A DNA stretch of 60,067 nucleotides, the filler included, from Platydemus manokwari (taxonomy: Eukaryota), in assembly GCA_037951405.1 (NCBI GenBank). It is 5 parts of 5 records of this genome, joined end to end, with 100 filler letters (N's around TTAATTAATTAA, not from the genome) between each part and the next. Parts side by side here need not be neighbours in the genome. Positions count along the whole stretch, not along the records: positions 12,460 to 23,386 come from JBBMOY011051078.1; 4 more parts are not named here. One strand, given 5' to 3'. Positions 6,906 to 39,681 of this stretch are shown piece after piece. Position 1 is the first letter of the stretch; every line of letters begins with the position of its first letter. The notes under the pieces are model-generated. The model was not told the origin of the DNA. It saw nothing but the letters and a program-made list of their open reading frames with translations, and ran no database searches. Both the position numbers and the translations under genes were made by a program.

Positions 6906-7510
6906 AGGAAAATTATGCATAATATAATTTAATCCTTGAATTTTATCTGTTTTATAGTTTTTATAATATCACAGTTCAGTATTGATGGCGTTTTTTAAGG
7001 TGTTCCCATGATTTATAAATTAGGATACTCGTACCCACCAAAAATCTTACTCTTAGCAGTTAATTAAGTTGCATGTTAAATACGAATAGGATATCGAGTA
7101 ACAAGTCAAATGTGCAAATAGTGTTGTGAATGAGGACATTGTTGGGCAGAAAATACTGGCCACATGAAGTATGTGAATCCCGATTATAATCAAATAGAAG
7201 ATTTACGGCGAAGTATAGTATAAAATAAGACTGAAGACGAAAATTCTTCGTGTACAGTAAGGATAAGCATCTGCATGGTAAATATTCAATTTCTGTGAAA
7301 TTTCATCAATTTTTAAAAATATAAATTTAATTTAGATGGTATCAATGGGAAAATAGAATAGTAATCAATATTGAGCCGAGAAAGAAATATAGCGACTCTA
7401 AGACTAGTTTGAATAAATAAATCTTGTTTTTTAGTCTTGTTTTTTATATATAAGCATTCTTAGTTTTCTATTAGTGGTGAACATTCCTCCAAAATTCTGT
7501 TATCTTACAA

Positions 7511-7840
7511 CCAATGTTTCCTCTAATTTTGGCAATTTAATATGCGCAATATTTGGTGCTGTGCAAAGTATGACAAACGGAAATTAATTGTGTGCACTGT
7601 GCACACAAGAATGAGCATAAGACAAGAAAATAATTTATTCATTTTATAGACTGTTTATTTCTTTACAAGGCTAATAGCAGGGATACAATAAATTGTTGGA
7701 GATGATATTATAAACTACAATCAAATTATTACTTAAAGAACCGTGGGTTTGACTTTCTCACTCCAGTACTTTGTTCTTAGTAAGAAACTTTTGTGAGCTG
7801 ACGTTTTACAACTGTGCACACCTGTTTCGTCCAACTAATT
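7511..7840 (-). mobile_element. Non-autonomous hAT derivative (MITE-like)
   Basis: Reverse complement matches both ends of the hAT copy at 38.6-39.5 kb (e.g. aaaacgtcagctcacaaaagtttcttactaagaacaaagtact vs 38694; aaaattagaggaaacattggt vs 39496) and lacks the transposase part. Confidence 0.7.
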
Positions 7841-8204
7841 ATTTAAAAATGATGTTTATTCATTGATATATCACATATATTGAATCACTAATTATTATCA
7901 TAGTATATATATAAAATGTTATTGCTCTCAAATAGTTTTAAAGAGGCATACAAATATCACATCAACAATATTAATTAACTCAATAACCTAAGCTTTTACA
8001 TGACACAAGTATTGATTATAGTAAAAAAAAATGCATAATAACCACAATAAAACAAAGCTTAAACAACATTTATTGATTAATCCAATAATCGAATAATCCA
8101 ATTCAATAAAATAGAAACAAAAAGCCAATCATATAAAAATCAATATTTGTATTAAATGCAAAGAAGCGTTAAAAAATGATGAGGAAAAAATCCCCACAAG
8201 ATAA

Positions 8205-10446
8205 TTAAACAAGAAAGCTATTGCTGTTATCAGTTTCTGGATCTAAATTATTGAAATTCAATGCAGGAATCATGCTTCTCCTGGTAGTTGGCAAGATATT
8301 TTCTGTGTTGATATCACTGGTGATGTGATCGAATAAATTGGATTTCTTTCGAGTTGATGATATGATTCCATTGTTGTCATGGTTACCAGATGATATTTGA
8401 TTGGTCGATATTCCTGTTGCAGTTCCTGAGGTCAAATTATCAGAATTTGTGTCAAGATCGTCGAATAATTTCTTCTGAATGGATTTTCTCGCAACATTTT
8501 TACCAGTTTCATTATTATTCAAATATGACGGAAGTGGTGAAAGATTCGAATATAATTTTTCATGCCCATAACCACTGGATTTAATGAAATCTTGAGTATC
8601 CATATAAACGGTATCTTCACAGAAATATTGAGCTGGTTGACTGCCCAAGAAAGATCTCTGCTTGATTTTTGGCGAAAGCAAAATCGATGATGATGATTGC
8701 GATGTGTGTCGATTAACATGAGATTTTCGGACTTTTCTCTGTGCTGGTATTGGTGATTTTAAACATGATTTCAAAGGCGTTTTCGGGCTGCTTGTTTCAA
8801 TAACGGTGATCGATGGTGATAAATTGAAACGATTGTGAGATTTGATTGGTGAAAACAAATTCATTCGACGTGGGGACATTGTTTTCATTTGTTTGTGAGG
8901 TGATTTCAAATCGATATATTTATCATCAGCTGCTTTGACAGGACTGAAAAATGGGCGACATCTCTTCTTTGGTGTTTGTTTATTGGGAGTTCCGATTGAT
9001 TGGTTGACAACATCAATTGAATTTGATTGGTCCAAATTATCACACTGTTTGATTGGCGAATTAAATGCATCAAATAATCGCGATTGAAATCTCGTTGTCG
9101 GTATGGACGAAAAACTGATCGATTCATGAGATTCATTGGAAAATTGTGTCAGTGATCTTTCTTGATTTTCTTGTGCTTGAACCCAATAATCACATTTGCT
9201 GATGGGATTCGATCGTTTACGTAATTGGTTATCCGTTTTTGCAAGAGCCCGTCGCAATTTGCGTTGCATTGTTGGCGTACTGGGAGTGGATCGATTGGGA
9301 ATCGGGGAATTCTTAATGACAATCACTCGTCCATCGAGTTTCTTTTGGGCAGCCAACGCTGCTCGTGCATGTCGTGGACCGGATATGCGCTTGTAATTCG
9401 GTGTTTCCGGTACGAGACTTTTCCGTTTCGTGGATTCCGGCTTTTCTTTTTTCTTTGAATTGGATTTTCGTTTTTCGGGTTTCATTGAGATGAGAGATTT
9501 TCTGGTCGGTTTAATGGTTCGATTGTTGGCCAGCGACGTACCATACTCGAATACCATTCGAATATTTGCTCTAATTGTGTTCATTAATAAATAATACGAT
9601 CAAAATATACATATATATAATCACTTTTCTTCAGATTCAAGTCTTTTTAAATCAATTAGACTATGTCGTTTTTTGGCCTTAGATTTCTCGGTGCATTCTT
9701 TAATGTCGAAGCTCAAATACGATTCATCCGGTTCTTCTTCAACTCCAATGCCATCTGGTGATAATTCCGGTGGAAGATCAAGACCAATCATTTCATAAAT
9801 TTCAATTAAAACTGGTGAAAGCGTTTCATGGAAACTGATTTGAAAATTTTTATGGAAATATTTAATTAATTAAAATTAAACCTTAAAATAAAATTTTGCA
9901 TGAAAATCTTCCAATCGGTAATTTCCATCGTTATATTGAGAGTTGAAACAATATCGAATAACTTAACAACAATATAATTTTATTCGATTATTTTTCATTT
10001 ATAATTTGTATTACCCATGCTGTGAATTCTTCTTTAATCGTACCACTGAGTTCATAAGAAAAGTTTGACACCAGAAATGAATAAAATGATAAAAAGAAAC
10101 CTGCTTGATAAGCTAAACTAAAGTGTGGATGATATTTGTATGATAAAAACCATTAAATTTTACACTTTCACTATCAAATCGTCATCATATTTGTCCGTTA
10201 TTTCTGTTGATGTTAAACTAAAGTTATCGGTGGTGAACTTTATTAACTCATTAATATCTATATCCTAGTTCAAAATAAAATAATCAAAACTAATTTTTAT
10301 TAAATTACTTTTGGATTGTAAGTGAGGTAAGTTAGATCGTCGAATAGATTTTTACACGAATCTTTCAAATTGAAATATGAATACTCCACATTCATCAGTT
10401 GATCTTGTTTTGAGGTAAAGTCAATTTTCAATTTATCCCAATCCAT
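8205..10446 (-). CDS. TICRR: Treslin/TICRR (Sld3)-like replication initiation factor, 6 exons, 665 aa
   Basis: Exons 10446-10309, 10264-10164, 10117-10015, 9961-9882, 9834-9625, 9570-8205 with GT-AG introns of 44-54 nt join to 1998 nt in frame. The N-terminal part resembles the Sld3-Treslin domain (DFTSKQDQLMNVEYSY; DIVSTLNI...FMQNFILSFHETLSPVLIEIYEMIGLDLPPEL). Paired CDK sites VPETP and IKNSP are 32 residues apart, as for human T969/S1001. S/TP-rich disordered tail. Confidence 0.7.
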
Positions 10447-12359: not shown

Positions 12360-12459
12360 NNNNNNNNNNNNNNNNNNNNNNNNNNNNNNNNNNNNNNNNN
12401 NNNTTAATTAATTAANNNNNNNNNNNNNNNNNNNNNNNNNNNNNNNNNNNNNNNNNNNN
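12360..12459. other. Artificial contig spacer (six-frame stop linker)
   Basis: 44 N + TTAATTAATTAA + 44 N, identical in 4 places. Confidence 0.97.
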
Positions 12460-15400
12460 TAAAATACCTTTCGAGTCCATAGGAGCAACAGCACATTTTC
12501 AAACATTGATGAGCACAACACTGCCTGATGAACAATATTTCATGATTTTGTTATTTTTGATGAAATATCATATGAAAAATAATGTTTAGATCACCGCAAC
12601 CATATATACTGACTAATATCCATCCTGATTCTTCTATTTTCTAAAAGATTTTTGTCATCCCACATTTGAAAATTTGAATCCCCAACCAAATCTTTATATT
12701 ATGAGCACTGCATTTATTATTTCTTATCGCTTATCACACCTGAATACATTAAATTATCATTGATTGAATCACAGCTTTTAATATCCAGTACAAATTGATA
12801 TAACTTTTCAATTCATGACTCATGAATTATTTTTTTGAAAGATAAATATTTTATTTTAGAAAAATATGTAATATTGGTTTAGGAAACTTAGATTAGTAAC
12901 ACGATTTACAAGTAAAAATATTTTAATTTAAGAATTTTAAAGATAAAAAAGAAGTGTTGTTATAAGAAAAAGAGTTGAGTTTAGTATTTTTATCTTATTT
13001 AAGGAATACGTAATTCACATAATAACAAATGGCATGTTCACTTGGAATTTCGAATTTATTAGTGATTATAAAAATAGCATGAATAAAAATACATAAACGA
13101 TTTCGTTCAATTTTTTTTAATGAACAGATAAAGTAAAGATCCATCCAAAGGAATGTTACAAGAGCTAAAGAAATGTCTTTGATCATTTCCAAAGTTTCGA
13201 TTATTTCCTCAATAATAAAGACCTTGTCCATAAGTATTCTCAATCTACCTCATTAAACTAATATTTATTAATTATTGGTGATTTAAAGTAAACAAAAAGA
13301 TTTATTAAATATTGCAGGACAATCTTAATAATATATAACAATTTAATTCTATGTAGAAAAATGTTAGATAAAAAACCAGTAATTACAATTAATTTTTTAA
13401 AATTTTTTAGAATATTACTGCATTAGAATATTTATTGTAAAATTAAGTGTACATAATTTCTATGAAATATAATATAATATTCATCTTATTACATAATTAA
13501 AGCTCAAATAATTACCAGATCATAATAAGGGATTATGAACACGTAATAATATATTGCAATTGCTGAATATAAAAATGGCAAACAATTATAAATAATCTAT
13601 TAATCACAATTATACAAATTTACCTTCAAACAATCTAATAAAATGTTCAACATAAACGCAAAATAACATCTAATACTTTAACAGCTAACTCTGCTGACTC
13701 CAATACACTGACATTTGACTGGCTCGGTCTCAGTATTTATATTTGTGTTTTGTGTGTTTCACTTTTAATTGATTGTTTTATTTATTGTATATTTATTTTA
13801 TCCATCAATCATAAGATTTGGGGATTAGTCAATCCCTATGCGTGTCTCCTCGTGTAGTTATGTTTCTCGTAAAATTATTATTTTTCTTTTCAAATCATCT
13901 GTGATTCGCTGGTTGTCAAGCTTGTATGATTATTTAGGTGTGCCAATATTTAAATTGCTAAAACAAGGGTTTCAATATACGAAATCATTTTTCTTTTTAA
14001 AGATTTTGTCTTCACTCAACACAATCTAATGTGATATTATTTACTAACTAATAAGCATAGGAGTAATTAGATGAATTACTGAATATATTACCAATTTGCA
14101 GATTAGTTTAGAATGTCACTTAACAAATGAAAATGTTCACAAAAAATTTAAATCAATCTTACTATATAATTATGTTTTTAATATAAAAATAATCTATTAT
14201 ATATGTAAATTTTACTGAAATTTCCTTCTACCTCTAACTGTATAACTTATCCCAAAAAAGTGTGGTCTAATATAATACTGATATAATTCGCTAATATTAT
14301 ATCACCAGTATGATTTTTCTTTTTGTCATTTTCCAACCACGTTTTTTATTCAAATAATTTGCACAATTAAATATTTCACTGCATTTTTATCGTACCTTTT
14401 CAAACGACATCTCTGATATTAAAACTTTCGTGTTCTTTTTCATGAAAGCTGGAATATATTCTTTCATGTGGGAAGAGCACTGAATATGGTAATTATATAC
14501 AGATCTTCAATTAAATTTAAAGAATTTTAGAACTGGGGTTCGAATTTTTTCAGTTACCCATTTTTTCAGTTAATAAACCTTTTTAAAATGCTTTTTCATA
14601 CATTTAAATTTTTCCATTATTGCCATTATATATGCATTATATATATATATTATGTTATTGTTTATTTTTCATTTATTTTTCTCATTAATTCAATTTAATA
14701 ACATATGCTTTTAATACGTTGTTGCTTTTGAACTTTTATGGCTTATTGCTACATTGGTGATAACTCAAGTAAATCCAACTAAACAAAAATTTTCAATGAA
14801 ATAATAAAAACACTAGTATTATTAAATCATATCAACTGTATTTATTGTGAGTAAATTTATAATAAAAAAATAAATAAAATATGCCATAATTTAGTCTACT
14901 TGTTTAAATCTTTTAAGTTATGTTTTAGTGAAAATTATTTTAAAGGTTACTTAAATTTAGTTCGTTTTGAAATTACAATAGATGAAATCAAGTGAAATTC
15001 TAAAATTTCCAATTTTCATTTGATAATAAATTATAGACATATTTATTCCTCAACAAATAATGAAGTTCATTTTTCATTTTCTATTAAACGATATCTTGTA
15101 TTTGGATTATTACAATTTTTCAGTTTCAATTCTCATTTATACTAATATAATTCATAAATTTTCTCATTTGTATATTTTACATAATAGAAGACCATTATTC
15201 TAAAAAAATGTTTAATACGAAAACTTTACATAGTTTATTCGAAATACAATAATATTTATGAATTTTATAAAAATTTCCCTCAACCGTCTTATCTGTTTTG
15301 TCGGCATTCTGAGCAGATTTTTACAAGAAAAATAAAATGATAATAATAGTAATATACCCGATAAAATCGTATAAAATAATACTGCAAGAGTAGATTTTAT

Positions 15401-16958
15401 CACATTGCTTGCAGTTCATATTTCAGAATAACTTAAATCAGAGAAAGAAATAAGGATGTGGGACTTTATAGCGTTCCTCAAAAATAAACCATAATTGAAT
15501 TTCTGAATGTGATACTTGAGTAATAAATTTAATAAATGAAAAATAATTTATAAAAGCATTTGACAAAATCATTTACTAGCAATTGATACAACAAAAAATT
15601 GTAACATGTTATCCTTTCAATGAACGAATATGTTTTTCAAATGTGGAGTGGCATAAAGAATACATTCAATACGGGCATTGTATAAATTATTCGTTGAATT
15701 TACTATCAGAACTACACTATATCGATCAATTCTACCATTGCAATTACTTAAAGATAATGGAATTTTTAATTACTCTGCAAGACAATAACATTTGTGAATC
15801 GGATTGTTTATTTAGTCCAAGATATCATCTAGTCTCCCAATTATTATTTCTTTTGTTCAATGTATTGTTATACTATTTTATTGGGTTATGAGGAATGTAT
15901 ATCTCAATATCTTGACTTGTACGTTGTAATATTTGAATAGTTAGAGAACAAAAGCAAAAGTTAATTAGAATCTAAAATTATAATTAATTGTTTGTGAAAA
16001 TGAATTCGAGAATTCTTGAAAGTTTACCAATTATATGAAAATGAATTCGACCAGTTTTGAATATCAACTTAAATGTAGGTTCTAATTATGTAAATGCCAC
16101 TTAGGATGTTGAATACTTTTTTCATACCTGTAAGGCAAATCTCAAATCGTTTGGACAAGAAATTCAAAACTTATAAATTTGTATGAAAATTCTCTAGAAT
16201 TCCAATAGCAATTAAATAATAAAAGATTTTGAGATAAAACAAGATTGCTAGCATTTATTACAATTTCTATTAAAATTTTTAATTTATCTTGGTATGAAAG
16301 TAAATATTCAAATTTAATAAGCTAATAATGCAGGATATAATTGTTGAAGAAAATAGAATGGTTAGATAAACTAAGAGTTAACTTAGCAATGTTAACTTAA
16401 ATTACAAGTTTAAAATAATATCCGAATGATTAAATTATGAAAATACTGAAGCAGTTATTTTGATTGTCATTAGCTTTGAAAACTCTGGAAATATCAATGG
16501 AAGACGACTAATTAAAACCAATAAATATAAGTCAAGCATACCTGAGAGAATAAAATTTGGTTATACATTAATTTTGGCAGCTGAAATTTATCAGATAAAT
16601 GATTTATAAAGATGCAAATTTCGGTGGATACAAAAATTAATAAAAACTTAATGACTCACATTTTCAGATATAATTTTGCTGATAGTTGAAGTTATTTTTT
16701 TAATAATTTAAACTTATTTTAACTCAAATTATTAGTTTATAACATAATTAATATTTAAAAAATAATATAAATCAAATTTAATAAGCAAAAATCTTTCTCT
16801 TCGTCTTAAGATTTTTAAATTACTTTTAGACCATAATTAAACGAAATATGATATTATTGGTTAAGTAAAATGTTCATATTCAGCTTGCTTAACTCTATCA
16901 TTTGATGATATATTGTTTATTATTGATATTGTTTTGTTCCTTTATCTCATTTGTAAAA

Positions 16959-17704
16959 ATGATATTTTTTCTTGTCATTTTATGTATCCATCTAGATTTC
17001 ACTGTGTCAATATGCTCGATAACTTACAAACAATGTGGATCAATATGTGCTTATCAAATGTTAAATATAGAACAAACATTCTGTGAATCATGTGAAACGT
17101 GTCATTCCGCTGGAGGGAGATTAGCATTGGACATTGAAATAAAATCGTTAAGTAAATGTGTTCCAGAGGAAAAACAATTTTTTACAGGTATGACTGATTT
17201 ATTAAATGAACGATATACGAATAAAACAAAATGGTTGAATATTGATGGATCCTTTATGAATGATGAAATATTATGGCATAGTACGGAACCAAATAATCGT
17301 GGTAATAGAGAAGATTGTTTGGTTTATAGGTCAAATGGGTTAAGCGATTTTCCATGTAACAGTAAACAATCAGTAGTTTGCATAAAAGAAATTTATAAGA
17401 ATAGTGGTTCAAAACATTTCAAAAGAGATAATATAAACATCTACAACGAGGGTGATCAAGATGGATGCTACAAATTTGTAAATTCGAGAAGCAAACTACA
17501 TTGCGGATCATTGTAATTTTTTAAAATTCAGATATTGCATTGATATTTCTTTGTAGATGCCTTGGAAAAGGTAAATGCAATTCTTTCTTTTATAATGATG
17601 TGAGTGGTGCTTGTATATTAGTTATGTATGCAAGCAGCACTATACCTGCGAGCTGGAAGAAATTAAATCAAAATTGGCAAGGATATCATTTTATAAAACA
17701 ATAA
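16959..17704 (+). CDS. Secreted C-type lectin + PAN/apple-like domain protein, 2 exons
   Basis: Hydrophobic signal peptide MIFFLVILCIHLDFTVS. CTLD motifs FFTGMTD, WHSTEPNN..EDC..LSDFPC..VVC. A 44-nt intron (17513-17556) restores HCGSLCLGKGKCNSFFYNDVSGACIL (PAN-like Cys pattern). Stop at 17702-17704. Confidence 0.82.
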
Positions 17705-18227
17705 ACAAAAACTAATACACGATTTTAATTACTATTTTGAACTCATGACTTATTTGACCAGCGGAAATATTATTTCTCTTAGAGGCTGTGCATTTTCGTT
17801 ATTTTATATCGATGTAATTCAGTGATAATGGTAAACAGTAGTATGTATAAAATAAAAATTTGTTACCTAAACTGAAATTAATGATACAGTCCAATTATGA
17901 TACATCTGAATGAAATATTAAAAGAATTTGACGAAAATAAAATTAAACGAGTTAAAGAACAAATTTATTGAAATTGACGTTTTAATGCATTAATCAACAT
18001 TCTAATTGAAATTCGAAACTTACTATTAAGTAAAGTTTTAATTGTTGATATTGGTTTTTTAAAAATTTAATTAAGTTATTGGTACTCCATTTTAGAAATT
18101 AAATAAGCTTCTTTATTAAATTAATTTAAGCTTCGAAGTCACTTTTTTATAAAATAACTCTAAAAATTTTAGATATCAGTTCAATTGCTCATAATGATTA
18201 AAAAAGGGGTACTTTTTAATTATTTGC

Positions 18228-18455
18228 ATTTTGACCTACATTGACCCGTTTTTCAAATAATTAATTTTTAGGAGATTCTAAAAATCCTATGCATTTATTA
18301 TTTGATTTTAAATAACTAAAATTATACTCAAGTACTTAAATAAAAATTTCAAAATGTTATTAAAGAATTTAATTAAATAATCTATATAGATTTTTGCAAT
18401 ACACTCTAAAATTTTATTTCAGGACCCCTTTTTTTAACTTTAGCCAATTATTTTG
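18228..18455. repeat. Copy of one arm of a dispersed foldback/MITE family
   Basis: Aligns by eye directly to 36590-36755 and in reverse complement to 36770-36915. Confidence 0.7.
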
Positions 18456-18929
18456 ATATTTGCCATTTTAAATGTAAGTGTGCATTTTCTTTTGATGTTA
18501 TGAATATTTTGTTCAAGTAATGACCTTATGAATTATGTATGAAATGAACATTTTAATAAATATAAGTTCTTAACTGAAAGTATTTTATGGAAGAAAAATT
18601 TACTTCGTAATATTCATTGATCAATGATTTGAGGCATTTATGAATTTTGTATATCAGCGCCTCCACTTGATTGCAATTAATATTGGTGTTACTTTTCTAT
18701 CTTATGAGAAACACTTATCTAAGTAATTTATGATGGCAATTGTTCTTCCAATGTTATGATTAAATCGTTTATGTGGTTGATTAGACAAGATTTCAAATTT
18801 TTAATCGTGTTATAAATTGAGATTTATTATTGTTTTTATTTTGTTCCTTATTTATTAATTTTTATTTTGATTAATGAACTTGTCTCTTCATAAAAATAAA
18901 CAAAAACAATGAGAATTTCGTTAATAGAA

Positions 18930-19500
18930 ACATTATCTACTGCATTTGCTCTAGAATTTCTTCAAACTTTTGTCATTACAAAGATGTGTTGCATTCATCT
19001 ATAGCTGAATAATTGATGTCTCTCCATATTGGATTCTAACAGATAAATTTAATCAAATGTTTTTCCAGAACTTTTACTAAATCCCATGTCGACTATCCGT
19101 TGTTATTGGTGAGACGTAATAATGATATTATTGGCACACTGTTCATTCCACTAAATTGCATCGCACTCTAAAACGACGTTGCTGAATCTCACGATCTAAT
19201 TTTATTTCAATTAATTATTATCTTCATATTTTCTAAAGTTTTTTGAACGGAATTAATGCAAGTTTAGAATGTTTTTTTTGAAATAAATAAGAATGTTTGT
19301 GGGTCATGATGATACTCATTTTCAAATTCACATATAATCGTGTGATCTAAATAGGCTTTGAACTAATACTTCAGTGAGAACATTTATACTTCTTCAAGTT
19401 TTTTTTAAATGACAAACAATAATGACCGACCTTTCTTTATATAGTTTTCAAGTCTTGCCTTTCAAATATGCCTAGTTCATCGCCTATTAATAATATTTGA
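18930..19500 (-). pseudogene. Highly degenerate Ty3/gypsy integrase remnant
   Basis: Stop-riddled minus-strand translation (LLIGDELGIF...; NNNG*STWDLVKVLEKHLIK...W...AIDECNT) resembles the integrase zinc-binding linker and core end. Confidence 0.3.
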
Positions 19501-20753
19501 ACCTCTAAGATACCAGAAATATGTAATTATTCCAATTAATTTGCACTATAAATTATTTAATTACTGTTTTTTTCTAAATTTTATAAATAAATAACACATT
19601 TCTTTTCCATTAATTATTTATTGGCTTAAAATATTGAGATCATTTTTTGACAAATCATAAGCTAATAGGTTTGGTCAAAAAATTATAGAGTTACACGTTT
19701 CACATTTTCATTGATCATTTTTATTGGTTATCATCTATTTATGTCGGTATATATATTTGTTTGTACCAAAAATATCACATTCAACGAAGATATTTCTAAT
19801 TTTTAAATTATTGGAAAGAGAAGATTTGTGTAAGATCTTTGCTATTAAAGAATTAATGGCAATTGAAATGAGTGGTAAACAAAAATCGTTGTGAATTTTA
19901 AAGAAAGAGTGGCTGATTCTGTTAGAGTTTGAGTTGATTTATTTATTTGAGCCATAATAAATTATGATATTAATTTGAAAGCAAATATCGTAGATACCAG
20001 GCTTAAAGATTTGGATAAGATTAGTGAAATTATTGGAATTTTGAGAAAGAACTTTTAAGATTTACATATATATTGTTCAGAACTTAACAGTTATGCAGCC
20101 GATAATAATAATGATAATCTATTAAATCAGAAATTATAAGTGCATCTTTATTAGTAATTTAGATAAAACAAAAAATATAAATCTATAGAATGTGCAAGAA
20201 TAATTAGTTGAAGCAATTATTTTAATATTGTTTGATGACATTAAAAAGCGTCAATTCTTGGGAAAACTGCCAGTTGGAAGCCAGATTTATGGTTGTTATT
20301 TTGTAAATCTTTTCTAAGTCTTTTTTCAGCAGTACTCAATTGACATACAATTTTAGCCTTCTATTATTCGAGTCAGAGATTAGGTATTTGTTTTAATGAT
20401 CCTAAAATAATAACAAATCGACGATTGATGATTTATTATAACTTTATCTTATGACAGTTAGAGAGACAATAAATATTTCCACCTTACTCTTAATAAATTG
20501 GTTATTTTTGTGGTTATGCCAACATGAAATATATAGCAAACTAATTTAAAATGACATATTCCTTATTGTAAATAAATGATGCAAAGTAATTAGACTGATA
20601 AAATCTGTAGTGATCTGAAAGTATTGATAAGTTACCAATTTTATAAGAAATGAAAATTCCAACAACTTTGTGGAAATTTGACTTATTTTTGCAACTAAAA
20701 TACTTATCAATATTGATTCAATTTAAAAGTGCAGTGAAATAATTTAAATTATC

Positions 20754-20820
20754 AGTAGTATGATACACCACTATCTCACGGCATACCTTGAACCGTGAGA
20801 TGCTGGTGTATCATACTACT
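20754..20820. repeat. 28-bp inverted repeat hairpin with AGTAGT...ACTACT termini
   Basis: agtagtatgatacaccactatctcacgg / ccgtgagatgctggtgtatcatactact, 26/28 paired, 11-nt loop. Confidence 0.92.
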
Positions 20821-21048
20821 CTAAAATTTAGGGCATTGGCAAATATCATAAAAATAACATGCATAAAATTCCAATTAAAATAGTATCCTTAAAAATGAAC
20901 GAAAAAAATTGCGAAATTTGTAACAAGGACATGAAAAATCAAGAAACCATATAGTAATATATATAGGAAAATATATAGGAAAATATATAGCAAAAACCAT
21001 ACAATTTTCCTAATATCTTTTCTTCTTTTAAATCTATCAATTTATAAG

Positions 21049-22023
21049 TTATGGGTTTGGTTTTGGAATACTATCCATTTGATGAATTAATTTAACATCA
21101 GCAACATGTCTCTCTTGTAAATCTTCTTAAATATAATCAAAATCATGATGCATTGCTATTATATCTATTCTATTCACAGGCTGATGATTTTCTTTCGGAA
21201 TTGGTGGTATATCTAATTTTCCAGTTTCATTATAATTATTAACAATTTCATCATAATTTTGTAAATGTTCTTGAAGATTTGTTCCTGGCAAAAACGATTT
21301 AGATTATATTTTACGCAATCATTAGGGGTGATTAAACCCTTCATGCCCACCAACGTTTAGTCTCTGAACAGTTTCCATATTTTCATCATAACGAACTTAG
21401 GAAACTTGCTGCGGGTTGCCCATTTATTTTTTATTCTTCAGCCACAAGCGAGAATAAAATATTCCATCGTTTTTACTAAATAGCAGTCATTACCTGAGAT
21501 CCTTCAAAAGATTTCTCAATTGAAGTAGTAGATGAAGACTTTAGAAGTTCCCCGCAATTTGAAGGTTTTGCATTTTTATTTTTTGAAAGTTTCATTAAAA
21601 ACACTAGCATTGACTATGAATTAACACTCTAGCTCATTTTTGACTCGTATAATTATGTACAGGATTACTTTTGTTTAATGGATTCATACCTTTTAAATGA
21701 AATTTTCCAGGATGGCAACTCGTACTAAATTTATTCAAAAATTGATTATTTGTTATTGCTTCTTGTATATCACCACCTGTGGCTAGCTTTGTAGCATCAC
21801 CTCCTTTGAAACCTTTTAATTTGTTTATTACATTCGTAATTTTATTGGTATTATTCGTATTATTCATACTATTCATATTATTCGTACTAATTATACTATT
21901 TATACTAACATTCGTACTTTGTAGTATGCGACTATTACTTTTTTCATGTTAAGCTTTATTAGATTTTGAAATTTCTTCATTACAAGCACCACAAAAATAA
22001 TTTTTAGAATAATTTTTATTCAT
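21049..22023 (-). pseudogene. Zinc finger + parvovirus-type phospholipase A2 (PF08398-like) Polinton gene, disrupted
   Basis: MNKNYSKNYFCGACNEEISKSNKA*HEKS...GGDIQ...PGKFHLKG...HNYT [about 357-bp insertion, 21289-21645] PGTNLQEHL...PVNRIDIIAMHHDFDYI*EDLQERHVADVKL. Exact DxxAxxHDxxY catalytic motif and downstream AD motif. Confidence 0.85.
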
Positions 22024-22038
22024 TTTTCTACCTAAAAA

Positions 22039-22242
22039 ATGGCTTTTGTTTGGAATCAAAATAAAATAAAATTTAATAATCATACAAATATTCCATCATC
22101 CTTTAGAATGTTAATTGTTGGAAGGATTAAAGATTTGATATATTCTGATTTATTTAGTAATACAATAGAAAAAGATTTTAATTTTCGTGTAAATAAACAA
22201 TGGAACGAGAGATATAAATATATAGCTTTTGATAAAGATTAA
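22039..22242 (+). pseudogene. Internally deleted Polinton packaging ATPase (A32/FtsK-like)
   Basis: HTNIPSSFRMLIVG is the strand that precedes Walker A. It is fused directly to a C-terminal-type motif FNFRVNKQWNERYKYIAFDKD, with Walker A/B absent. Confidence 0.65.
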
Positions 22243-22349
22243 GATGTGATTCTTGCAGATCTGTTTATGGATTATGAATAAAATTATTGAAGGAAATTCG
22301 TTCAAATTTATAATTTAAAAATGAATAGCCGTTAGAAGGAACTTCGTTC

Positions 22350-23250
22350 GATGAATGGAAGTAACTTTGTTCAAATTCAAGGTTATAACATAAACAAAAG
22401 AATAGAAGAATTAAAAAATACTTTCCTTAAATAAATTAAATACTGAAGCTGAAGAAAACCTACGTTCAAATATTTTGTTAAATAAAAGTATTGTTGAATT
22501 TTCTAAACCACTTTTAGCACCAGTTGTACAAAATCAAGAAAAACACCAATTAGCAATTGAAGAAGAAAATAAAGCAATTTAGAAAGAAAATAAAGTTATA
22601 AATGTAAAATTCCAATTGGAGCATAACCAGGTGATATGAGCAGTGAAAATTTGAATATAAATTCAGAAGCATTTTTCGGAAGGAATGCTACAGGAAAAGG
22701 TGATAATATTTTCCCAAGCTTGGTAGAATTAGTATATAATGGAGTCATTTTTCCAAAATTAATTATTAATGAACATGAATTTTTAAATATCAAACATGGG
22801 AAAAAATATTTAAATTTAGCTGATGGTTCTCTTTTTAAATTAAATGAAAACTTATATAATTTAATACTTGAAAGTGGAAAGACTAAAACATGATGGAAAC
22901 TTTCCTGTTAAGGATATAGATGAATATCTAAGATTTTTAAAGAGCGCAAAAATTTCCAATCAACAAATTTGGAAAAATTAAATATTTAACGAGTCTTAAA
23001 CAAGTTAAAACCAGAATGATTGAAGATGTTGCATCAGAAACAGGATTAGAGTAATAAATTAAATAATAAATTAAATATTAATAATAACATTAATAATAAC
23101 ATTAATAATAATCCAATAGAGTTATTTTATGAATTAAGAAAATTATTAGCTGCTAAGAAAGGTTGACATAATAATTCAATAAAATTATATAAATTAAGAT
23201 ATATAACTAAAGATAGAAAAAATAAAATCATGAAAAAATATTTTTAAATT
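22350..23250 (+). pseudogene. Conserved uncharacterised Polinton ORF(s), degenerate
   Basis: Coiled-coil with FSKPLLAP, then LYNLIL...KDIDEYLRFLK, then NNPIELFYELRKLLAAKKG*HNN at 23101-23180, resembling the recurrent Polinton DPNELxxRLxLLxAxxxAG motif. Confidence 0.55.
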
Positions 23251-23386
23251 AAATTTCCTCTAGAAAAAAACTTTAATTTTGTCTTTAAAAAATGTGGATT
23301 AAAAAATTAAATGGAATTTCATTAGATCAAAATATTTATAAATTTAAACATAATATTAAGAAAGAAGATTTATATATTATTAATCC

Positions 23387-23486
23387 NNNNNNNNNNNNNN
23401 NNNNNNNNNNNNNNNNNNNNNNNNNNNNNNTTAATTAATTAANNNNNNNNNNNNNNNNNNNNNNNNNNNNNNNNNNNNNNNNNNNN
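23387..23486. other. Artificial contig spacer
   Basis: 44 N + TTAATTAATTAA + 44 N. Confidence 0.97.
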
Positions 23487-23979
23487 TTAAACAATTCTCT
23501 TATTCATGTAAATAATTATCTTAAATTGTGCAAAATTTATTTTAAAACTTAAAAAACCCTATAATTTCAGGTTTGGTTATTAACATGTGATGTGATAAAC
23601 AATAATGAAGAGTAATAATAGTAGATAGAAGTAAAAATAGAGAACAAATAATAATAACCAAATTATTTTTATTTAAAAAAAATATTCAAATGCTTCGATT
23701 TATTAAAATATAATTAAACTACTGTTTTGAGTAAAATCGACTAATGAAGTTTCATCAATCCAAAGTACCAAAAAGTAACAATAAAAAGTGAAAAATACTA
23801 ATTATTCATTTAAGATTTTATAGTATAAGAATAACAAAAACCTTTAAATGTAAGTGAATTTTCATTGATTTAAAAGGCTATCATTACAATTATTTAGACC
23901 AATTTAGTTTGTTTAAATTTCTCAATTAAAGAAGCCATTATTACGTCAACTAATTTTCATTATTTACTAATACATATTT

Positions 23980-25748
23980 ATGCAAACAAGTTCAAATTCA
24001 TCTTTTCCATTTGGTGGTTCTACTGATTTGGCAGCTCAAAACGCTTTGATGCAAGGTCTTGGATTTAATCCTCAAAACATCTCGTCTAATCCACAAGGGG
24101 CTATGGGTGGATTTATTCAAAATTCACAACCGATTGGTTATCCTGTTTTTGACCAGTCATTACAAAACAACTTTCAAACAACTCAAAATGCACTTAATAT
24201 GAATCAATTGAACCCCATGTTAATGCAGCAAAGTATGGGTCAACAATTGCAAGGATTTAATATGTCCCAAAATCAAATGGCTTCTCAATTGCCATTACAA
24301 ATGCAGCAACAAATGTTTGGTGGAAATGGAAATTCATCCATTATTCCGTCTTTTGGGGGTGTGTGTATGATATTTTACTTGTCAATACTGTTTCATATAA
24401 TTCGGACTTTAGGGGATGCTAATCAATTGCAACAGATGAATTCTTATGGGGGAATGAATCCTTTAATCGCTCAATCATTACAAGGAGCACAAATGCAAAG
24501 TAAATAAATTGATCTCTTGCAAACTTTATATTTTTTTCAAGATATGTATGGAGCTTCTGATGCTATGAACATGGCCTTTCAAGGTATGATGTCTGCACAG
24601 AGGGGTCAACTTAGTAACATGTTAGTTTTTATAATTATTGTAAATTGATTAAAATTTTTTCCATAATATTATTAATTATCTTTTTTTCATATTGTAGTGA
24701 GCGGGATAATTACAATTCCAATAATAACGGTATTATTTTATATTAATTTATTATTTGATACGAGAGGCAAATGTTAGGTGGTAATCATCATAATCGATTA
24801 CAAACGAGTAATAAAGATAATGAAGGTTACAAGCCGGATTTATAAACAAAATTAACGATAATTATTATAGATGGAGCTTTGCGTCTCAATACCGTTTATG
24901 TTAGTAATTTACCCCAGAATCTCGATCATGAAATGTTGAAAAATCAATTTAGCAAAGCCGGTTCGATTAAGGTAGTTTTGTTATACTTGCATAATTATTA
25001 ATTTATTTTGTATATTAGCTTAATTCTAAATCAGGAATGCCAATGATTTGGATATTCAAAGACAGGGGAGTTCCCAAAGGTGATGCACTGGTAACGTATG
25101 ACAGTAATTCATCCGCATCAAACGCAGTGGCGCATTTCAAAGGTAAATAAACTGTTAGGTAATTTGTCTTAAGAATTGAATAAATTCAGAGCATGATTTT
25201 AATGGTCGTCGCATTGAAGTTCGTATTGCTACAAATGCTGAACGACCTATATTAGCCCCACCATCAAATGGTCAAAGTAATGGGGGTATGGATAGGCGTG
25301 GTGGTAATCAGTATAAAATTGAGAGTATTTCACGTAACAATGATTACGAATGTAATTCATATGATTGGCAGAAACGAGAAGATGGTGGAGGATTTAACAA
25401 ACAGAGAGATTTTCGAAATAATAATAATAATAATAGAAATAATGATCGTAATAATAGAGGTCCTGATTGGATTTGTTCGAAATGTAACAATAACAATTTT
25501 TCTTGGCGTGAGTCATGTAATAGATGTCAAGTAGCATATTTTATTAACACAGTACATCAATAAAAATGATATCAAAGGAACCCAAAGCTGAAAATGCACT
25601 TGAAGTGCAAAAGCAAGATCGTGGACGTGGTTTTAGTGGTGGTCGTTCGAATAATAGAACAGTGCATAGAAATTCAAATGGACGAAATCAGGACGGTGGT
25701 CCGATGAGGGGTCCAAAACGTTCGACGTCAAGACCTGAGCCATATTAG
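23980..25748 (+). CDS. FET-family RNA-binding protein (FUS/EWSR1/TAF15/cabeza-like), about 9 exons
   Basis: Q/N/M/G-rich low-complexity N-terminus. Spliced RRM TVYVSNLP...FSKAGSIK|LNSKSGMPMIWIFKDRGVPKGDALVTYD...|HDFNGRRIEV with the FET-type extended loop. RanBP2 zinc finger DWICSKCNNNNFSWRESCNRCQ|EPK. C-terminal PY-NLS RPEPY. Confidence 0.92.
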
Positions 25749-33293: not shown

Positions 33294-36200
33294 CTGCGTC
33301 AAAGACAGTTGTAATAAATATTTTTAAAGTTAAAAAACATTTCTATATCACTAATAAATGTTTAAGCCACTGAAAAAATTCATAGAAATCATAAGTCATT
33401 CAAGTTTAAAAATTTTTAAATAAAATTCAAATAATTAGATAAATTACTGAAATACATTTTTGAATATTCTAGAAAATTAACAATATTAAATAAAAATATC
33501 TTATAACAGAAAATGTAGAAATTAAAAATTGAAAACTTATACAAATATTACTGGGAAAAATTTAAATTCTAAAATTTAAACTTTAAAATGAAATTTTAAA
33601 GATAGAGAATTTTTAGTGTCAACCAGGCTTTTATTAATATTTAATTACTAAATGGTTTAAACTAAAATTTGAACTATGGCCTAGTCTAATCGTTTTAATG
33701 CAATACAAAATCATCATTTAAATTGAATAAAATTCAAATATTATAACGAAATCCAGAAATGTTACAAATTCATTTTAAAGAAAAATCAATAAGAATCCGT
33801 GTTTTGGTTTGCATTTGGTTTAAGTAAATATGAAACTTTAAAATAAAAACCGTTGTAAATATTAATGCATTGTATCTCTATGATTAATAACATTATTATG
33901 AAAACAGTTTAACTTACATTTTTTGAAAACATAAGCAAACAAATAAGGATGTAATGAAGTACACAATTTAAATGCCACACGTATTGTTTATTAAAATTGT
34001 AGTAGAGAGTTATAGTGTTTTGAAATTGTAATTGAATCACAACAGATATCCAGCGATAAATGATATTGAAATTTATTGAAATGAGTTCGGGTTAATATTT
34101 TATCTGATATTTTTGAGTAGAATGATCATTCATTACTTATTTGTTGGTTCAACAAACCAACGTACATTAATTCATATAATTAAGTCTGCTATTCACATGC
34201 AATGAATATATTCAATAAAAATTTATACAAAACACATTTCAAGTATAATTAAGTACAACTTATTGGAAAAAGAATGGTACATCCAGAACTTGTTAAAAGA
34301 ACGTGAACTAAGAAATAAATATTAAATCAAGTTAAAGTATTTTTATTTCATATCTATTATGATTTATTTTATATTTAAAATATTCAGGAATTCTATTTAT
34401 ATTCGACACTATGTTTCCCTCGATTATCCAGATTGACTTTCTTAACATCACCAGAACTTCATCACTTTGGGCTTAAATTCAAAATTAACTAAACAATATC
34501 TTCAGTGAATAATATTTTAAAATTGAATCTCTTTTATAGATTTCAGAATATATTTTCTTTCAATACCAGGATTCAGCAACCGATAATTTGTGATAGAACA
34601 TCAATTAATAATTTATGATTGTTTCATGTTGTTTAAAGAAGGCAATTGATGAAATATCAGGAAAAGTTTCGCTAAAACTATTTTTCCTTTTTATGATATT
34701 AAATGAATTTACTGCATTTTATAAACGAGCAAAAATAAAATATAAAATTTCTATCAAGAAAAAATATCTTCTAAATGAAAAGAAGTTTTGAATTTGGTGG
34801 ATAAATGTCGTTTAATAGATGCTGTTATTTCAATCTTTTCTTAATATCTGAGTACACTTATTTTCCATTACAATTCATTTGTTTATTTTATTATTTTGTT
34901 ATTTTATATATAAAAATATTGATGACATATCGACTTCGACCAAAACAAGAACTAGTTTTTTGCTGAATGGAAAAATATCCAAAAGATATATAATGCAAAT
35001 ATGTTCTCAATTTGGTAGAGATTATGAAATCTTTACCAAATTTTAATAAATAAAGATCTTAGATGGTCTGTTAATGGTAATGATGACCTTTTTAGGAAGT
35101 TGGCTAAAAGTAACACCTGGTATACTATAATAGAAATGGAATACTTAATACACCTATCTCACAGAACGAAATTGGTTAGATTTCTTTTCTTATGACAGTG
35201 ATGTATATAGTTTCTATTTTAATTGTCTCGATCCTTTTATTCATTAATATAATACATAAGTGTAATAATTATTAAGGTAATAAATCATAAATAGTGTGCT
35301 TATAATAATATTGGACTCAAAATAAACAAACTCAAAACATAAGTAAACCATTTGATATTATGTATAACATGTATTCATACGAAGATAATCATTTGATTTT
35401 AACAGTATTGCATATTATGAATATTCTCTGACAAATCATATTTTAAAAATTCTTATTTTCATCATTTCAAGAAAGTAATTTACTGAATCTTACAAATAAA
35501 ATATTACGATAAAAGTTTCATCAAAACAATGGAAAAATGGCAACATAAAAATGGTTTAAAATACCCTTCACGCATGAATAAAAAAATTATATTTCGATCA
35601 TTTTTTCTAGTTAATTGATAAAAACCGAATCAATAATGTGATTATATTTGCTAGAAAACAAATAAAATTTCTATAGTGAATAAAATCTCTGAAATAATAA
35701 TACTTATAGACATTATAGTAATATAATAAATATATAACGATGAAATTAATAAATTATATTTGATTAAAATGATATTTAAATCATTAATGAACCAACCTGC
35801 TTTAGTTGTCATAAGAACAGTTATGTTCAATGTTAATTACAAAATAATATTTCTGTAATAACAGATCAACATCGTGGAATCAATATCGGAATTAAAGTAA
35901 TTTCAATCATAAATTCAACCATATTTCTATAATTATAGAAATTTGATTATTGGTTGAATGTAATTGGTCAATGAAAATTAGCTTTATCTTGTATCAAATG
36001 ATTTTATAAATATAAAGTTAATCTTAATTTATTACAATATTAACAGTTTTAGTAGTTAATAAATTTAGTGTTTCAATAAATTTATATTTAAGTAACAGAA
36101 AATTGCCTCATGAAAATTTAATTGATTATAAGCGTATTAAAATAATTTGATTAAGTTAAGAAAGGGCTCCTAAAATAAAATTTTTGGTTTAAGTTAAGAA

Positions 36201-36529
36201 AAAGTGTCGTTTGACCTGCTTTTGTTATTATGAACTTTCGCGCATGAGATAATTTTATAACTTAATTTTATATATAATAGCAATGTTTGATTTATACGTA
36301 TAATTCAGTTAATATCTCATTTTTTAAGATAACTGACAAAACAGTATTAAAACCAAGTTCCCATTCTAATCACAACACTTCTATATGATTATTTGAGTGT
36401 TAAAATTTAAATTTTTATATTTATACATCGAATTAGTTAATTACAGACATTTAATAATACCATTGCTTATTTTTATTAAATAATTGTAAACATTGAGAAA
36501 ATCTTTCAATTTGTTTCTATTGTTAAAAG

Positions 36530-36915
36530 GTCGACCCATTATTATTCCTTTATCAAATAATCAAATTTTATGCGATTTTTAAGCTCTAGTCTATTTAATA
36601 TTTGATTTCAAACAACTAAAATTTTTCTTAACTATTTAATTAAAAATTCAAAAAGTTTTTAAAGATTATAATTAAACTATATAGAATTTTGCAATACACT
36701 CAACAAATTAAAAATTTTATTTTAGGACCCTTTTTTTAAATTTAGCCAAAATTATTAATTTGTTGACTGTTGCAAAAATCTATATAATTTACTTAGTTAT
36801 ATTCTTTAAAAACGTTTTTCATTTTTTATTTAAGTTGTTTGAAATAAAGTATAAAATTCAATAGTTTTTTCTCCTAAAATTTGATTGTTTGAAAAATGGG
36901 TCAAAGTAGGTCAAA
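36530..36915. mobile_element. Foldback/MITE-like element with long degenerate inverted arms
   Basis: 36770-36915 is the reverse complement of the arm seen at 18228-18400 and partly of 36590-36695. Confidence 0.6.
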
Positions 36916-38629
36916 TTATAAATTAGCGAGGATAAAAATAAGTAATTATAGATTATTGAACAAGTTAGGAGCTTATTGATTCCATTTAAAATTTAAAAAA
37001 TTAAAAGTCATATAGAAGTGTTGTGATTATAATAGGAACTTGGATTAGCAATTCTATTAGGACAAAATAATTTAAAACAAAGATATACTTTGATTATTCC
37101 GCGTTTTTCTTGTTTTTTGAGATTTTTTCTTTATCGACGTAAAACTGCTTTGAAAATTGTTATTTTCTGTTTGCTCGATTTCAAAAATCCTGTATGAAAG
37201 TAATGGGCAAAATAAACGAGGGGATGGTGTTACAACAACATTTAAACACCACTTTTTTATAAATTATAAATAATCACTTCACTATGAAATCGGTTGTCAT
37301 TACAAGAAATGGGAAAAATGAAGAAAGCAATTATATTAACTTAGTAATCATAAAATTGATCCCTGCTAATTAAAATTCCGTAATACGATAAAGACACTCA
37401 TAAAAACAATAAAGAAAATTTTGGAAGAGAATTTCCAAAAGACTACATTTTATTTATTGTCGAATATTTTTATAAACAGTTTCATTGTTTTGATATATTT
37501 ATGATAATTTTCAATCATAAAATTCAAAAAAACGAATATTATTGTTATTTAATCGAATTTTACAAAATCCAAATATCTTCATATTTCCAAACTCTTCTCC
37601 AGACAATTTCTGAATTCTTCTAAAACCTTTCTTTTAATCAAACTCGCAGCAATTTGACTAGTCCATGCTCGCACTATCTTTTATTTTTGACTGCATTACT
37701 CAACCGATATTTGTGTTTACTACTATTTATTTATTTGTATTATCTACGTTGTATATGTTGTATTATATCACCATTGACTTTAACTTTGTTGCTAAAACCA
37801 AATAATTATTTGAAATCTAAATTAAATTACTTCAAAAAGTCAGATGTTGACGATATTTAATTTAAACTTCCTTCGTTAGCAAAGTTCACTTAAACAACTT
37901 AAATGTTTCATCTGTCGTAAGTATTGCTGACCCTTAATGAACCAAAACGGAATCAATATGCCATTTTAATTAACTGGGGGTTATACACTTATATGAGGGC
38001 TATATACTTATTATTTGATATCATTATTATATCAATGATTGGGTTATTGCAATATTACAAACAATTTATTAAGTTTAAAAGAAATTGTAATGAATTATGG
38101 AGATAACAAAATAATCAGTAATTCCACAAATAGTTTTCAAAAAAGATCGTAGAGAAGATACAACGAATCAAATTATGCTCGGATAGAAAATAAATAATTT
38201 TAAAAATATTGTAATATTTGATTAGTACCGATATTCCAACATTCCAGAAAACTAATCTATTCAGTCAGATATTTTAAATATTTCATTTTCATTACGGATA
38301 AAAAATCATGTCATCTTTAATTGCTCAAAGCGTAACAGACTTTTCTATTTCAGGATTTCTCCGCATTAATTAATTTTAGTAAATAAAAATTACAGTCACG
38401 ATTCAAGGCCTTGAAGTTTATAATAATAGAAGTTATGATATCTTCTGAAAACTAGTTAAAGTATTTACTATTCTGTCTCGCATTGACAAACGGAAAGAAT
38501 AAAGTACAAGTTGTTATATCCACTATTCATAACATTAAACGGTATAAATTTGAAAAAATTTATTATAGTAAATGATTATAGTCAACAATTTCAAACCGAA
38601 CAATTAGCTTAGAAGAAAATATAACTGTC

Positions 38630-39526: not shown

Positions 39527-39681
39527 AAGCTTTAAAATCTTTATAATTGATTTATTATGTTAATAACTAATTCGTGATCATTCATAAAACATTAATATCA
39601 CACGTATTTATATTAATATTTTATGAATGATCACGAATTAAGTATTAACATAATAAATCAATTATAAAGATTTTAAAGCTT
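39527..39681. repeat. 155-bp near-perfect palindrome (72-bp arms)
   Basis: 39527-39598 vs 39610-39681, 69/72 complementary, 11-nt loop. Confidence 0.95.

Follow-up and report, generated by a model that had tools for sequence, protein, structure and literature searches.

A probable Polinton/Maverick-type relic at a contig end in a flatworm genome, with a putative terminal hairpin

Introduction

A stretch of 60,067 nucleotides from Platydemus manokwari (assembly GCA_037951405.1; the window below, along which all positions are counted) holds, at the right end of its contig 12460-23386, a run of short reading frames that an earlier, sequence-only reading had taken for a hidden segment of a Polinton/adintovirus-like genome beginning at 20890. 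It had described four tightly packed, stop-interrupted frames, among them a zinc finger-phospholipase A2 (PLA2) gene and a packaging ATPase standing head to head, and the start of a further frame running into the assembly gap. The locus thus raises the question of whether these frames are what is left of such a virus-like element and, if so, of what kind it was and in what state it survives. Our answer is that the region 20754-23386 is quite probably what remains of a Polinton/Maverick-type (adintovirus-like) element that had inserted into a flatworm chromosome and decayed there. The element is a fossil of a known kind, i.e. Polinton-derived, from an unnamed lineage; no working enzyme is encoded by it, and most likely it is inert. 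We do not file it as an intact Polinton because a polymerase, an intact integrase and a functional ATPase were all found wanting.

Results

Genes of the family in the order of the family

The element retains genes of the Polinton family in the family order, with inactivating lesions: a piece of an integrase and a PLA2 gene on the minus strand, followed by a divergent ATPase on the plus strand. The same arrangement is found in L001 and L002, two of the three loci (L001, L002 and L003) that were confirmed out of 29 pattern matches in a scan of prokaryotic genome assemblies. These loci are probably eukaryotic elements that were binned with bacteria in metagenome-assembled genomes, i.e. binning contamination. 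L002, a capsid-encoding element on a 14.7-kb contig, shows matches to rve (E=4e-9), PF08398 (E=5e-10), Pox_A32 (E=8e-10) and the double jelly-roll (E=2e-54), its genes being ordered as an integrase with rve and chromodomain (-), a DUF5679+PLA2 gene (-), a divergent A32 ATPase (+) 34 nt away and, further on, the double-jelly-roll capsid. To the left of its integrase lies a frame of 688 aa, cut by the contig end, that matches only Rho_N and Endonuclease VII; a polymerase is unsupported there. L001 has the same first three genes, and L003 has an rve integrase, a protease resembling adenain and a polymerase-like frame of 1243 aa for which Pfam gives no PolB match at E<=0.1.

When all frames of L001-L003 of at least 80 aa were compared with the whole window in a tblastn-type comparison (E<=0.05), three matches were obtained with BLOSUM62 and four with BLOSUM45. 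All of them fall in the relic region, where they cover PLA2 (two matches), an integrase stretch and the start of the ATPase. A six-frame Pfam scan in which stops were read as X yielded a single match in the six frames, to PF08398 (E=0.029); neither the PLA2 nor the ATPase identity is secured by Pfam alone. The two divergent ATGs stand at 22023 (-) and 22039 (+) with 15 nt in between. All five ATGs examined (20895, 22023, 22039, 22321 and 23292) are directly preceded by AAAA, versus 70 of the 2150 ATGs in the window, a count that is supportive only, with three of the five having been chosen by eye.

Taken together, the A32 ATPase relative, the integrase piece and PLA2 alongside it, and the L002-type layout support the Polinton/adintovirus reading, and the head-to-head start codons, the tight packing and the interrupting stops are all as had been described. 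What has to be revised is the inventory: there are at least six gene remnants rather than four reading frames, an integrase piece (20999-21061) and a CxxC start (20895) having been left unlisted, and the element probably starts not at 20890 but at 20754, with a hairpin that carries the Maverick end motif. Its features are as follows, with P numbers denoting matched proteins:

20754-20820: hairpin of 67 nt with 28-nt arms and an 11-nt loop, AGTAGT at its start and ACTACT at its end; probable left terminus
20895-20954 (+): CxxC stub of 19 codons in AAAA-ATG context, possibly the start of a zinc-finger gene; identity uncertain
20949-20995: 12-nt tandem repeat, 3.9 copies (TRF score 73), between the CxxC stub and the integrase piece
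20999-21061 (-): 21 codons of an rve integrase, from its C-terminal region, with neither the catalytic core nor the chromodomain
21055-21294 (-): catalytic part of a parvovirus-type PLA2 (HHD..D) with a single stop inside it; the 3' end is gone where it meets the integrase piece
21295-21681: unrelated DNA of ~385 nt interrupting the PLA2 gene in the calcium-loop region; boundaries approximate
21682-22023 (-): N-terminal part of the PLA2 gene, with a CxxC..H zinc-finger-like start, one stop, an Asn-rich linker and a motif like the start of the PLA2 calcium loop
22039-22281 (+): relic of an A32-family packaging ATPase, in which the N-terminal 28 codons run on in frame, across 22122/22123, into ~52 C-terminal codons
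22321-23050 (+): frameshifted coding remnant, longest open stretch 22627-22893
23110-23244 (+): motif from the C-terminus of a conserved accessory protein of Polintons, with one stop and an 8-codon gap; 66% identical to P0002
23292-23386 (+): start of a frame, MWIKKLNG, cut by the contig end at the gap from 23387

A packaging ATPase without its core

When 1.84 billion representatives were searched by phmmer with the plus frame 22039-23244, three matches were recovered (P0001, P0002 and P0003), of which P0003, a Pox_A32 ATPase (E=7e-10), is the only full-length one. A further search with P0003 found 275 proteins, 120 of them listed, and named Caenorhabditis proteins are among the matches listed. 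The nature of the lesion is best seen against P0011, an intact relative of 255 aa (Pox_A32 E=1e-9): the window is identical to it at 24 of 28 positions over residues 1-28 (86%) and at 38 of 53 over residues 199-251 (72%), and the two matching halves, 22039-22122 and 22123-22278, directly abut. Between them ~170 codons (~510 nt) are gone, and it is there that the alignment puts Walker A, Walker B and RGRH, none of which was found in any frame of 20754-23386. Likewise, a profile of 249 positions, built from those relatives among P0005-P0048 that are shorter than 300 aa, matched the window at positions 3-31 and 201-248 and nowhere between. One premature stop lies at 22240-22242, and Pfam ATPase families gave no match to 22039-22122 or 22039-22434 even at E<=10. 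With its core deleted, the gene therefore cannot encode an ATPase. The earlier assignment to the A32 family was right, and applies to a relic of only 81 codons without Walker A, Walker B or RGRH.

A quick tree was made from 61 of the 120 listed matches, the three locus ATPases and the relic, which fills 31% of the columns; there the relic pairs with P0011 (SH-aLRT 96) within a 34-row clade (SH-aLRT 97) of proteins from short contigs. A separate clade (SH-aLRT 100) holds L001, L002 and three Caenorhabditis proteins. Architectures among the relatives vary: P0034 and P0042 (528 and 546 aa) are natural proteins in which an A32 ATPase and the downstream accessory gene are fused, and P0004 and P0007 are ATPases with N-terminal C2H2-like extensions.

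The PLA2 gene and the integrase piece

The catalytic part of the PLA2 gene is 42% identical to the L002 PLA2 over 50 aa (E=1e-5), and none of 1000 shuffles scored as well; a search of PDB sequences with the same piece gave four chance matches (E>=1.3). The finger in the part at the other end of the gene (21682-22023) aligns with two N-terminal fingers, that of P0004 (0 of 1000 shuffles) and, weakly, that of P0007 (40 of 1000). The CxxC stub was compared with the same two fingers, with weak scores that were reached by 5 of 1000 (P0004) and 36 of 1000 (P0007) shuffles. The link between the N-terminal part and the PLA2 domain is itself weak, with 189 of 1000 shuffles as good when it is taken alone and 11 of 300 when it is read with X across the break. 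The zinc finger-PLA2 gene of the sequence-only reading holds as regards a finger-like start and an HHD..D motif on the minus strand, and needs amendment in being split by ~385 nt of unrelated DNA. This insert has a GC content of 0.33, versus 0.26 on either side, and no match in Pfam, NCBIfam (none of six frames), Rfam or elsewhere in the window; an Rfam scan of 19000-24000 returned no match.

The integrase piece is identical to the L002 integrase at 11 of 21 positions (tblastn E=0.004-0.007 against the whole window). Its score against the integrase of L001 or L002, both of which are of the rve+Chromo type, was reached by none of 1000 shuffles, and it lies on the strand and the side expected from these two loci. 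It overlaps the end of the PLA2 similarity, and therefore a second large deletion appears to have taken the PLA2 tail together with most of the integrase.

A probable terminal hairpin

The hairpin at 20754-20820 is most simply explained as the left terminus of the element, with its first 28 nt repeated in inverted form. Its arms are 93% complementary (26 of 28 positions), its fold (-25.6 kcal/mol, z=-10.15) was matched in stability by none of 200 shuffles, and only one other hairpin in the window has exact arms of at least 17 nt. Only 1 of the 12 AGTAGT sites in the window has an ACTACT within 200 nt, and the pair (AGT)2//(ACT)2 is the commonest end motif of Mavericks (PMC8097293; statements on this paper and on PMC3014272, PMC8502044, PMC6431247, PMC8532177, PMC4040987 and the bioRxiv preprint below apply to excerpted parts of these texts). 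The 6 nt before 20754 (ATTATC) do not follow any of the eight ACTACT sites in the window. L001 and L002 show no matching terminal hairpin. L002 does carry ACTACT at the right-hand end of its genes; it also has a different hairpin of 33 nt (2266-2298 of that contig), with an ACTACT at 2318 just past the integrase stop and short matches, in inverted orientation, to the right-hand end of the element. Such a hairpin is undescribed in the literature that we found, which is a weak negative, most subscription papers and Repbase lying outside the search. That the hairpin might be Tc1-like, with CAGT after TA, was rejected because its flanks are unsuited.

The hairpin is also central to the alternative that the locus is a non-autonomous, or defective-interfering, Polinton derivative, in which the deletions would have come about during replication with the ends preserved, and the short element, or the hairpin alone as a minimal two-ended element, would have been moved in trans by an intact helper. 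In its full form, this would make the locus a relic within a deletion-derived non-autonomous family of a parasitic (piwi-less) flatworm, with the hairpin as a functional fold-back terminus or a helper-mobilised minimal 'mini-Polinton', and with a parent from an undescribed clade known from short contigs. We consider both the general and the full form rather unlikely. It is consistent with a terminus motif that kept its 26/28 pairing though the genes were gutted, with several large deletions that are clean and leave high identity on both sides, and with a hairpin bearing both end motifs, facing outwards. However, no duplication of 4-8 nt was detected around the hairpin; neither a second copy of its arm (at <=3 mismatches) nor, by profile search, a second ATPase copy was found in the 60-kb window; the stops, frameshifts and insertion fit neutral decay; and non-autonomous Polinton copies are apparently absent in Anolis, according to the relevant excerpt (PMC3014272). 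We therefore favor a left terminus with a fold-back, whose partner end would lie beyond the gap, because the well-kept arms of an independent mini-element should still show a duplication.

Frames downstream of the ATPase

The remnant at 22321-23050 has no Pfam or NCBIfam match, and an Atlas search with 22630-22890 gave nothing usable; within it, 22636-22785 is 84% identical to P0001, a 51-aa fragment. P0002, to which the next motif (23110-23244) is similar, matches the C-terminal profile of the L002 gene at 7339-8211 and of the ATPase-fused halves of P0034 and P0042 (E=2e-7), and this links the last motif of the relic to a Polinton accessory gene, whose product may be 'PZ-like'. The window piece 23110-23244 is itself weak, its scores being reached by 12, 100 and 561 of 1000 shuffles. 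P0001-P0003 cluster as singletons, and an Atlas search with P0002 gave nothing usable. A two-sequence profile of the C-terminal halves of P0034 and P0042 found no match in the window, and a three-sequence profile (L002, P0034 and P0042) placed the pieces collinearly, at E>=0.027. The two conserved-motif frames of the sequence-only reading may, at a guess, be pieces of one frameshifted gene spanning 22321-23244. The ATG frame beginning MWIKKLNG at 23292 does run into the gap as reported; it has no Pfam match, and its best score among nine L002 proteins was reached by 43 of 1000 shuffles.

Weighing the Polinton reading

Several observations weigh against identifying the locus as a Polinton. Remnants of a polymerase, a capsid or a protease were not found in the window by Pfam, by the L001-L003 frame searches or by a motif scan, and there is no PolB motif in 20754-23386; the capsid genes of L002 lie toward the side on which the present contig ends. 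A target duplication and the right terminus are both unseen. The PLA2 piece (88 residues) reaches E=0.0015 and 19.2 bits against PF08398, under the curated cut-off of 23.9, and a word-based homolog search with it, covering longer proteins only, passed none of nine candidates. The integrase match spans 21 residues only. The body of the gene at 22321-23050 failed to match the profile of the relatives: its read-through with X at the breaks scored -8.1 bits, with 488 of 500 shuffles and 713 of 720 orders as good or better. Finally, decay in place is a presumption made on 60 kb of sequence only.

Other explanations fare worse. It is very unlikely that the fragment comes not from an animal Polinton but from another A32-encoding virus (a Polinton-like virus, virophage or giant virus): its closest ATPases, the 34-row clade, are indeed nameless proteins from short contigs that stand apart from the L001/L002/Caenorhabditis clade, whereas the order of integrase, PLA2 and ATPase and the end motif fit animal Polintons, and P0034 and P0042 of the wider group have a C-terminal half homologous to the L002 gene (E=3e-10 and 5e-8). 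There is similarly little chance that an assembly artefact or foreign DNA is involved, i.e. that the 'deletions' were produced by the collapse or chimerism of reads where a contig ends. The relic does lie at the very end of its contig (gap at 23387), where repeats often break assemblies; yet stops and frameshifts run throughout all its genes, as in an old insertion, its base composition fits the host, and to its left host-like DNA with a lectin gene continues without a break. A parvoviral/densoviral or bidnaviral endogenous element, with a VP1 PLA2 and a terminal hairpin of the single-stranded DNA virus type, is extremely improbable and already disfavoured by synteny, since the PF08398-type PLA2, along with the fact that parvoviruses have terminal hairpins, is offset by an A32 ATPase and an integrase piece as PLA2 neighbours, by the Maverick motif at the hairpin ends, and by the lack of any HUH or Walker A pattern in 20754-23386 and of any NS1 (HUH endonuclease, SF3 helicase) or VP jelly-roll Pfam match in six frames. 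As regards the outcomes that the sequence-only reading had named as fatal to its proposal, a lack of Polinton matches or a parvoviral NS1 context, the proposal survives in substance: the sole full-length match of the plus frame is a Pox_A32 ATPase, and no NS1-type motif was found. The neighbouring genes speak indirectly to the question of a densoviral VP1.

Proposed origin and decay

What is known of the Polinton family suggests that the parent of the relic would have been a linear double-stranded DNA element of 15-25 kb with a double-jelly-roll capsid and with PLA2 as a virion protein. It would have inserted via its rve integrase, replicated by a protein-primed polymerase and packaged its DNA through the A32 ATPase, and its PLA2 would have served to breach membranes on entry (PMC8502044 and PMC6431247). 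After insertion the element would have lost two large segments whose absence is directly visible, namely the ATPase core (~510 nt) and the PLA2 tail with most of the integrase. A third deletion probably removed the region between the terminus and the integrase, which follows if the hairpin is the left terminus and the parent had the L002 layout. The element would also have gained one insertion of ~385 nt and accumulated stops and frameshifts, in a decay dominated by deletion.

Genomic setting

The window is AT-rich animal DNA (GC 0.17-0.40 per kb) made of contigs joined end to end. At 12360, 23387, 40394 and 50672 it contains four identical 100-nt spacers of the form N44-TTAATTAATTAA-N44, with stops in all six frames; these are an assembly convention, and therefore contig order and gap sizes are uncertain. 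An apparent inverted repeat, 23328-23486/50672-50830, was discarded as an artefact of the N spacers. The element abuts the second spacer, its contig stopping at 23386, and no continuation of it was seen in the contig beginning at 50772. On the left, the same contig continues as host-like DNA with a C-type lectin gene; the base composition of the relic region fits host DNA, and the contig has repeats in common with another contig of the window.

The host was placed with the large SF3B3 exon of the window, which has one relative at 94% identity, all others being at <=75%. A quick tree of the window exon and 44 of the 120 listed matches, whose rows include neither a named free-living flatworm nor a named monopisthocotylean, groups the exon, itself on a long branch, with the parasitic flatworms sampled (SH-aLRT 100); on this evidence the host is probably a flatworm.

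Further Pfam-matching frames of the window encode C-type lectin, RING, RanBP-type zinc finger, TSP1/Ig, SF3B3 and CAP domains. A gene of several exons at 23971-25748 (+), which opens with a Gln/Gly-rich stretch and has RRM-like exons and a zinc finger of the RanBP2 type (E=1e-6), presumably resembles the FET/Cabeza family. An open frame of 464 codons at 8208-9599 (-) has no Pfam match at E<=0.01. The window is also rich in repeats. The only other long hairpin is an AT-rich inverted repeat at 39527-39681 (72-nt arms, 96% complementary, 11-nt loop), possibly a miniature inverted-repeat transposable element (MITE) or foldback element. A Gag-like frame with a CCHC zinc knuckle at 1-324 (+; E=8e-7), whose region has an inverted match at 41177-41392, is a possible remnant of a long terminal repeat (LTR) retroelement. 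A dispersed repeat at 18334-18447 and 36136-37046, found in both orientations on two contigs and with inverted arms around 36136-37046, is a probable small DNA transposon. Further dispersed repeats (32067-32199/59099-59231 and 7609-7816/38684-39463) are inverted and 84-90% complementary.

Significance and comparison with known systems

The fossil itself has no likely function. Its value is that it adds a flatworm host to an A32 ATPase clade so far made of short anonymous contigs, and that its end motif and the natural relative P0011 can serve as probes for intact copies in this genome. Should the host be a neodermatan, it would document Polinton infection of a piwi-lacking lineage (PMC4040987), as against the PIWI-silenced Polintons of planarians. 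If it is true that the hairpin is multicopy with target duplications, a minimal cis signal for Polinton integration would be defined.

Among intact elements, L002 is close to the relic in layout: both have the integrase (-), a zinc-binding domain coupled to PLA2 (-) and a divergent A32 ATPase (+) across a short gap (34 nt versus 15 nt in the relic), and in both a later gene bears the same C-terminal motif family. L002 differs in being intact, in having a double-jelly-roll capsid, in the DUF5679 N-terminus of its PLA2 and in an ATPase that belongs to another clade. Furthermore, several genes lie between the ATPase and the motif gene in L002, whereas the motif gene appears close behind the ATPase in the relic and in P0034 and P0042.

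PLA2-like genes characterise the virion modules of the Alpha adintoviruses, with FtsK and PLA2X side by side in the text of Fig. S2 (PMC8502044). The relic resembles these Alpha (Mayetiola-class) adintoviruses, or PLA2-bearing Polintons (Starrett et al., PMC8502044), in a parvovirus-type PLA2 that adjoins the packaging ATPase and in an integrase nearby. In contrast to them, its genes are all broken; the sequenced part does not contain PolB, adenain, hexon or penton; its PLA2 domain falls below the Pfam cut-off; and the pX-like tail that defines PLA2X has been lost. In PMC3671162, PLA2 appears in a figure legend only.

With the degraded Mavericks of vertebrates (Barreat and Katzourakis, PMC8097293) the relic shares the (AGT)2//(ACT)2 end motif, the stops, the frameshifts and the insertions; as many as 96% of vertebrate Maverick loci are in a degraded state (PMC8097293). 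These elements differ in their gene modules, and the excerpted text on them never mentions 'phospholipase' and describes no terminal hairpin (PMC8097293).

Within the host phylum, Polintons are known in Schmidtea mediterranea, where they are silenced by a PIWI protein (PMC8532177), and Orthopolintovirales insertions have been reported in Rhabditophora (bioRxiv 10.1101/2025.04.19.649669). The relic has its host phylum in common with these flatworm Polintons, although its own host may belong to a parasitic lineage. A survey of parasitic-flatworm viruses has no mention of 'adinto', 'dsDNA' or 'DNA virus' (PMC9241645), and a monogenean genome paper, which describes piwi as lost in Neodermata, mentions neither Polinton nor Maverick in its excerpted parts (PMC4040987); in the literature searched we found no pairing of a Polinton with a monogenean. 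Degraded Mavericks and flatworm Polintons are thus already known, and what is new here is another Polinton fossil, of a lineage as yet unnamed.

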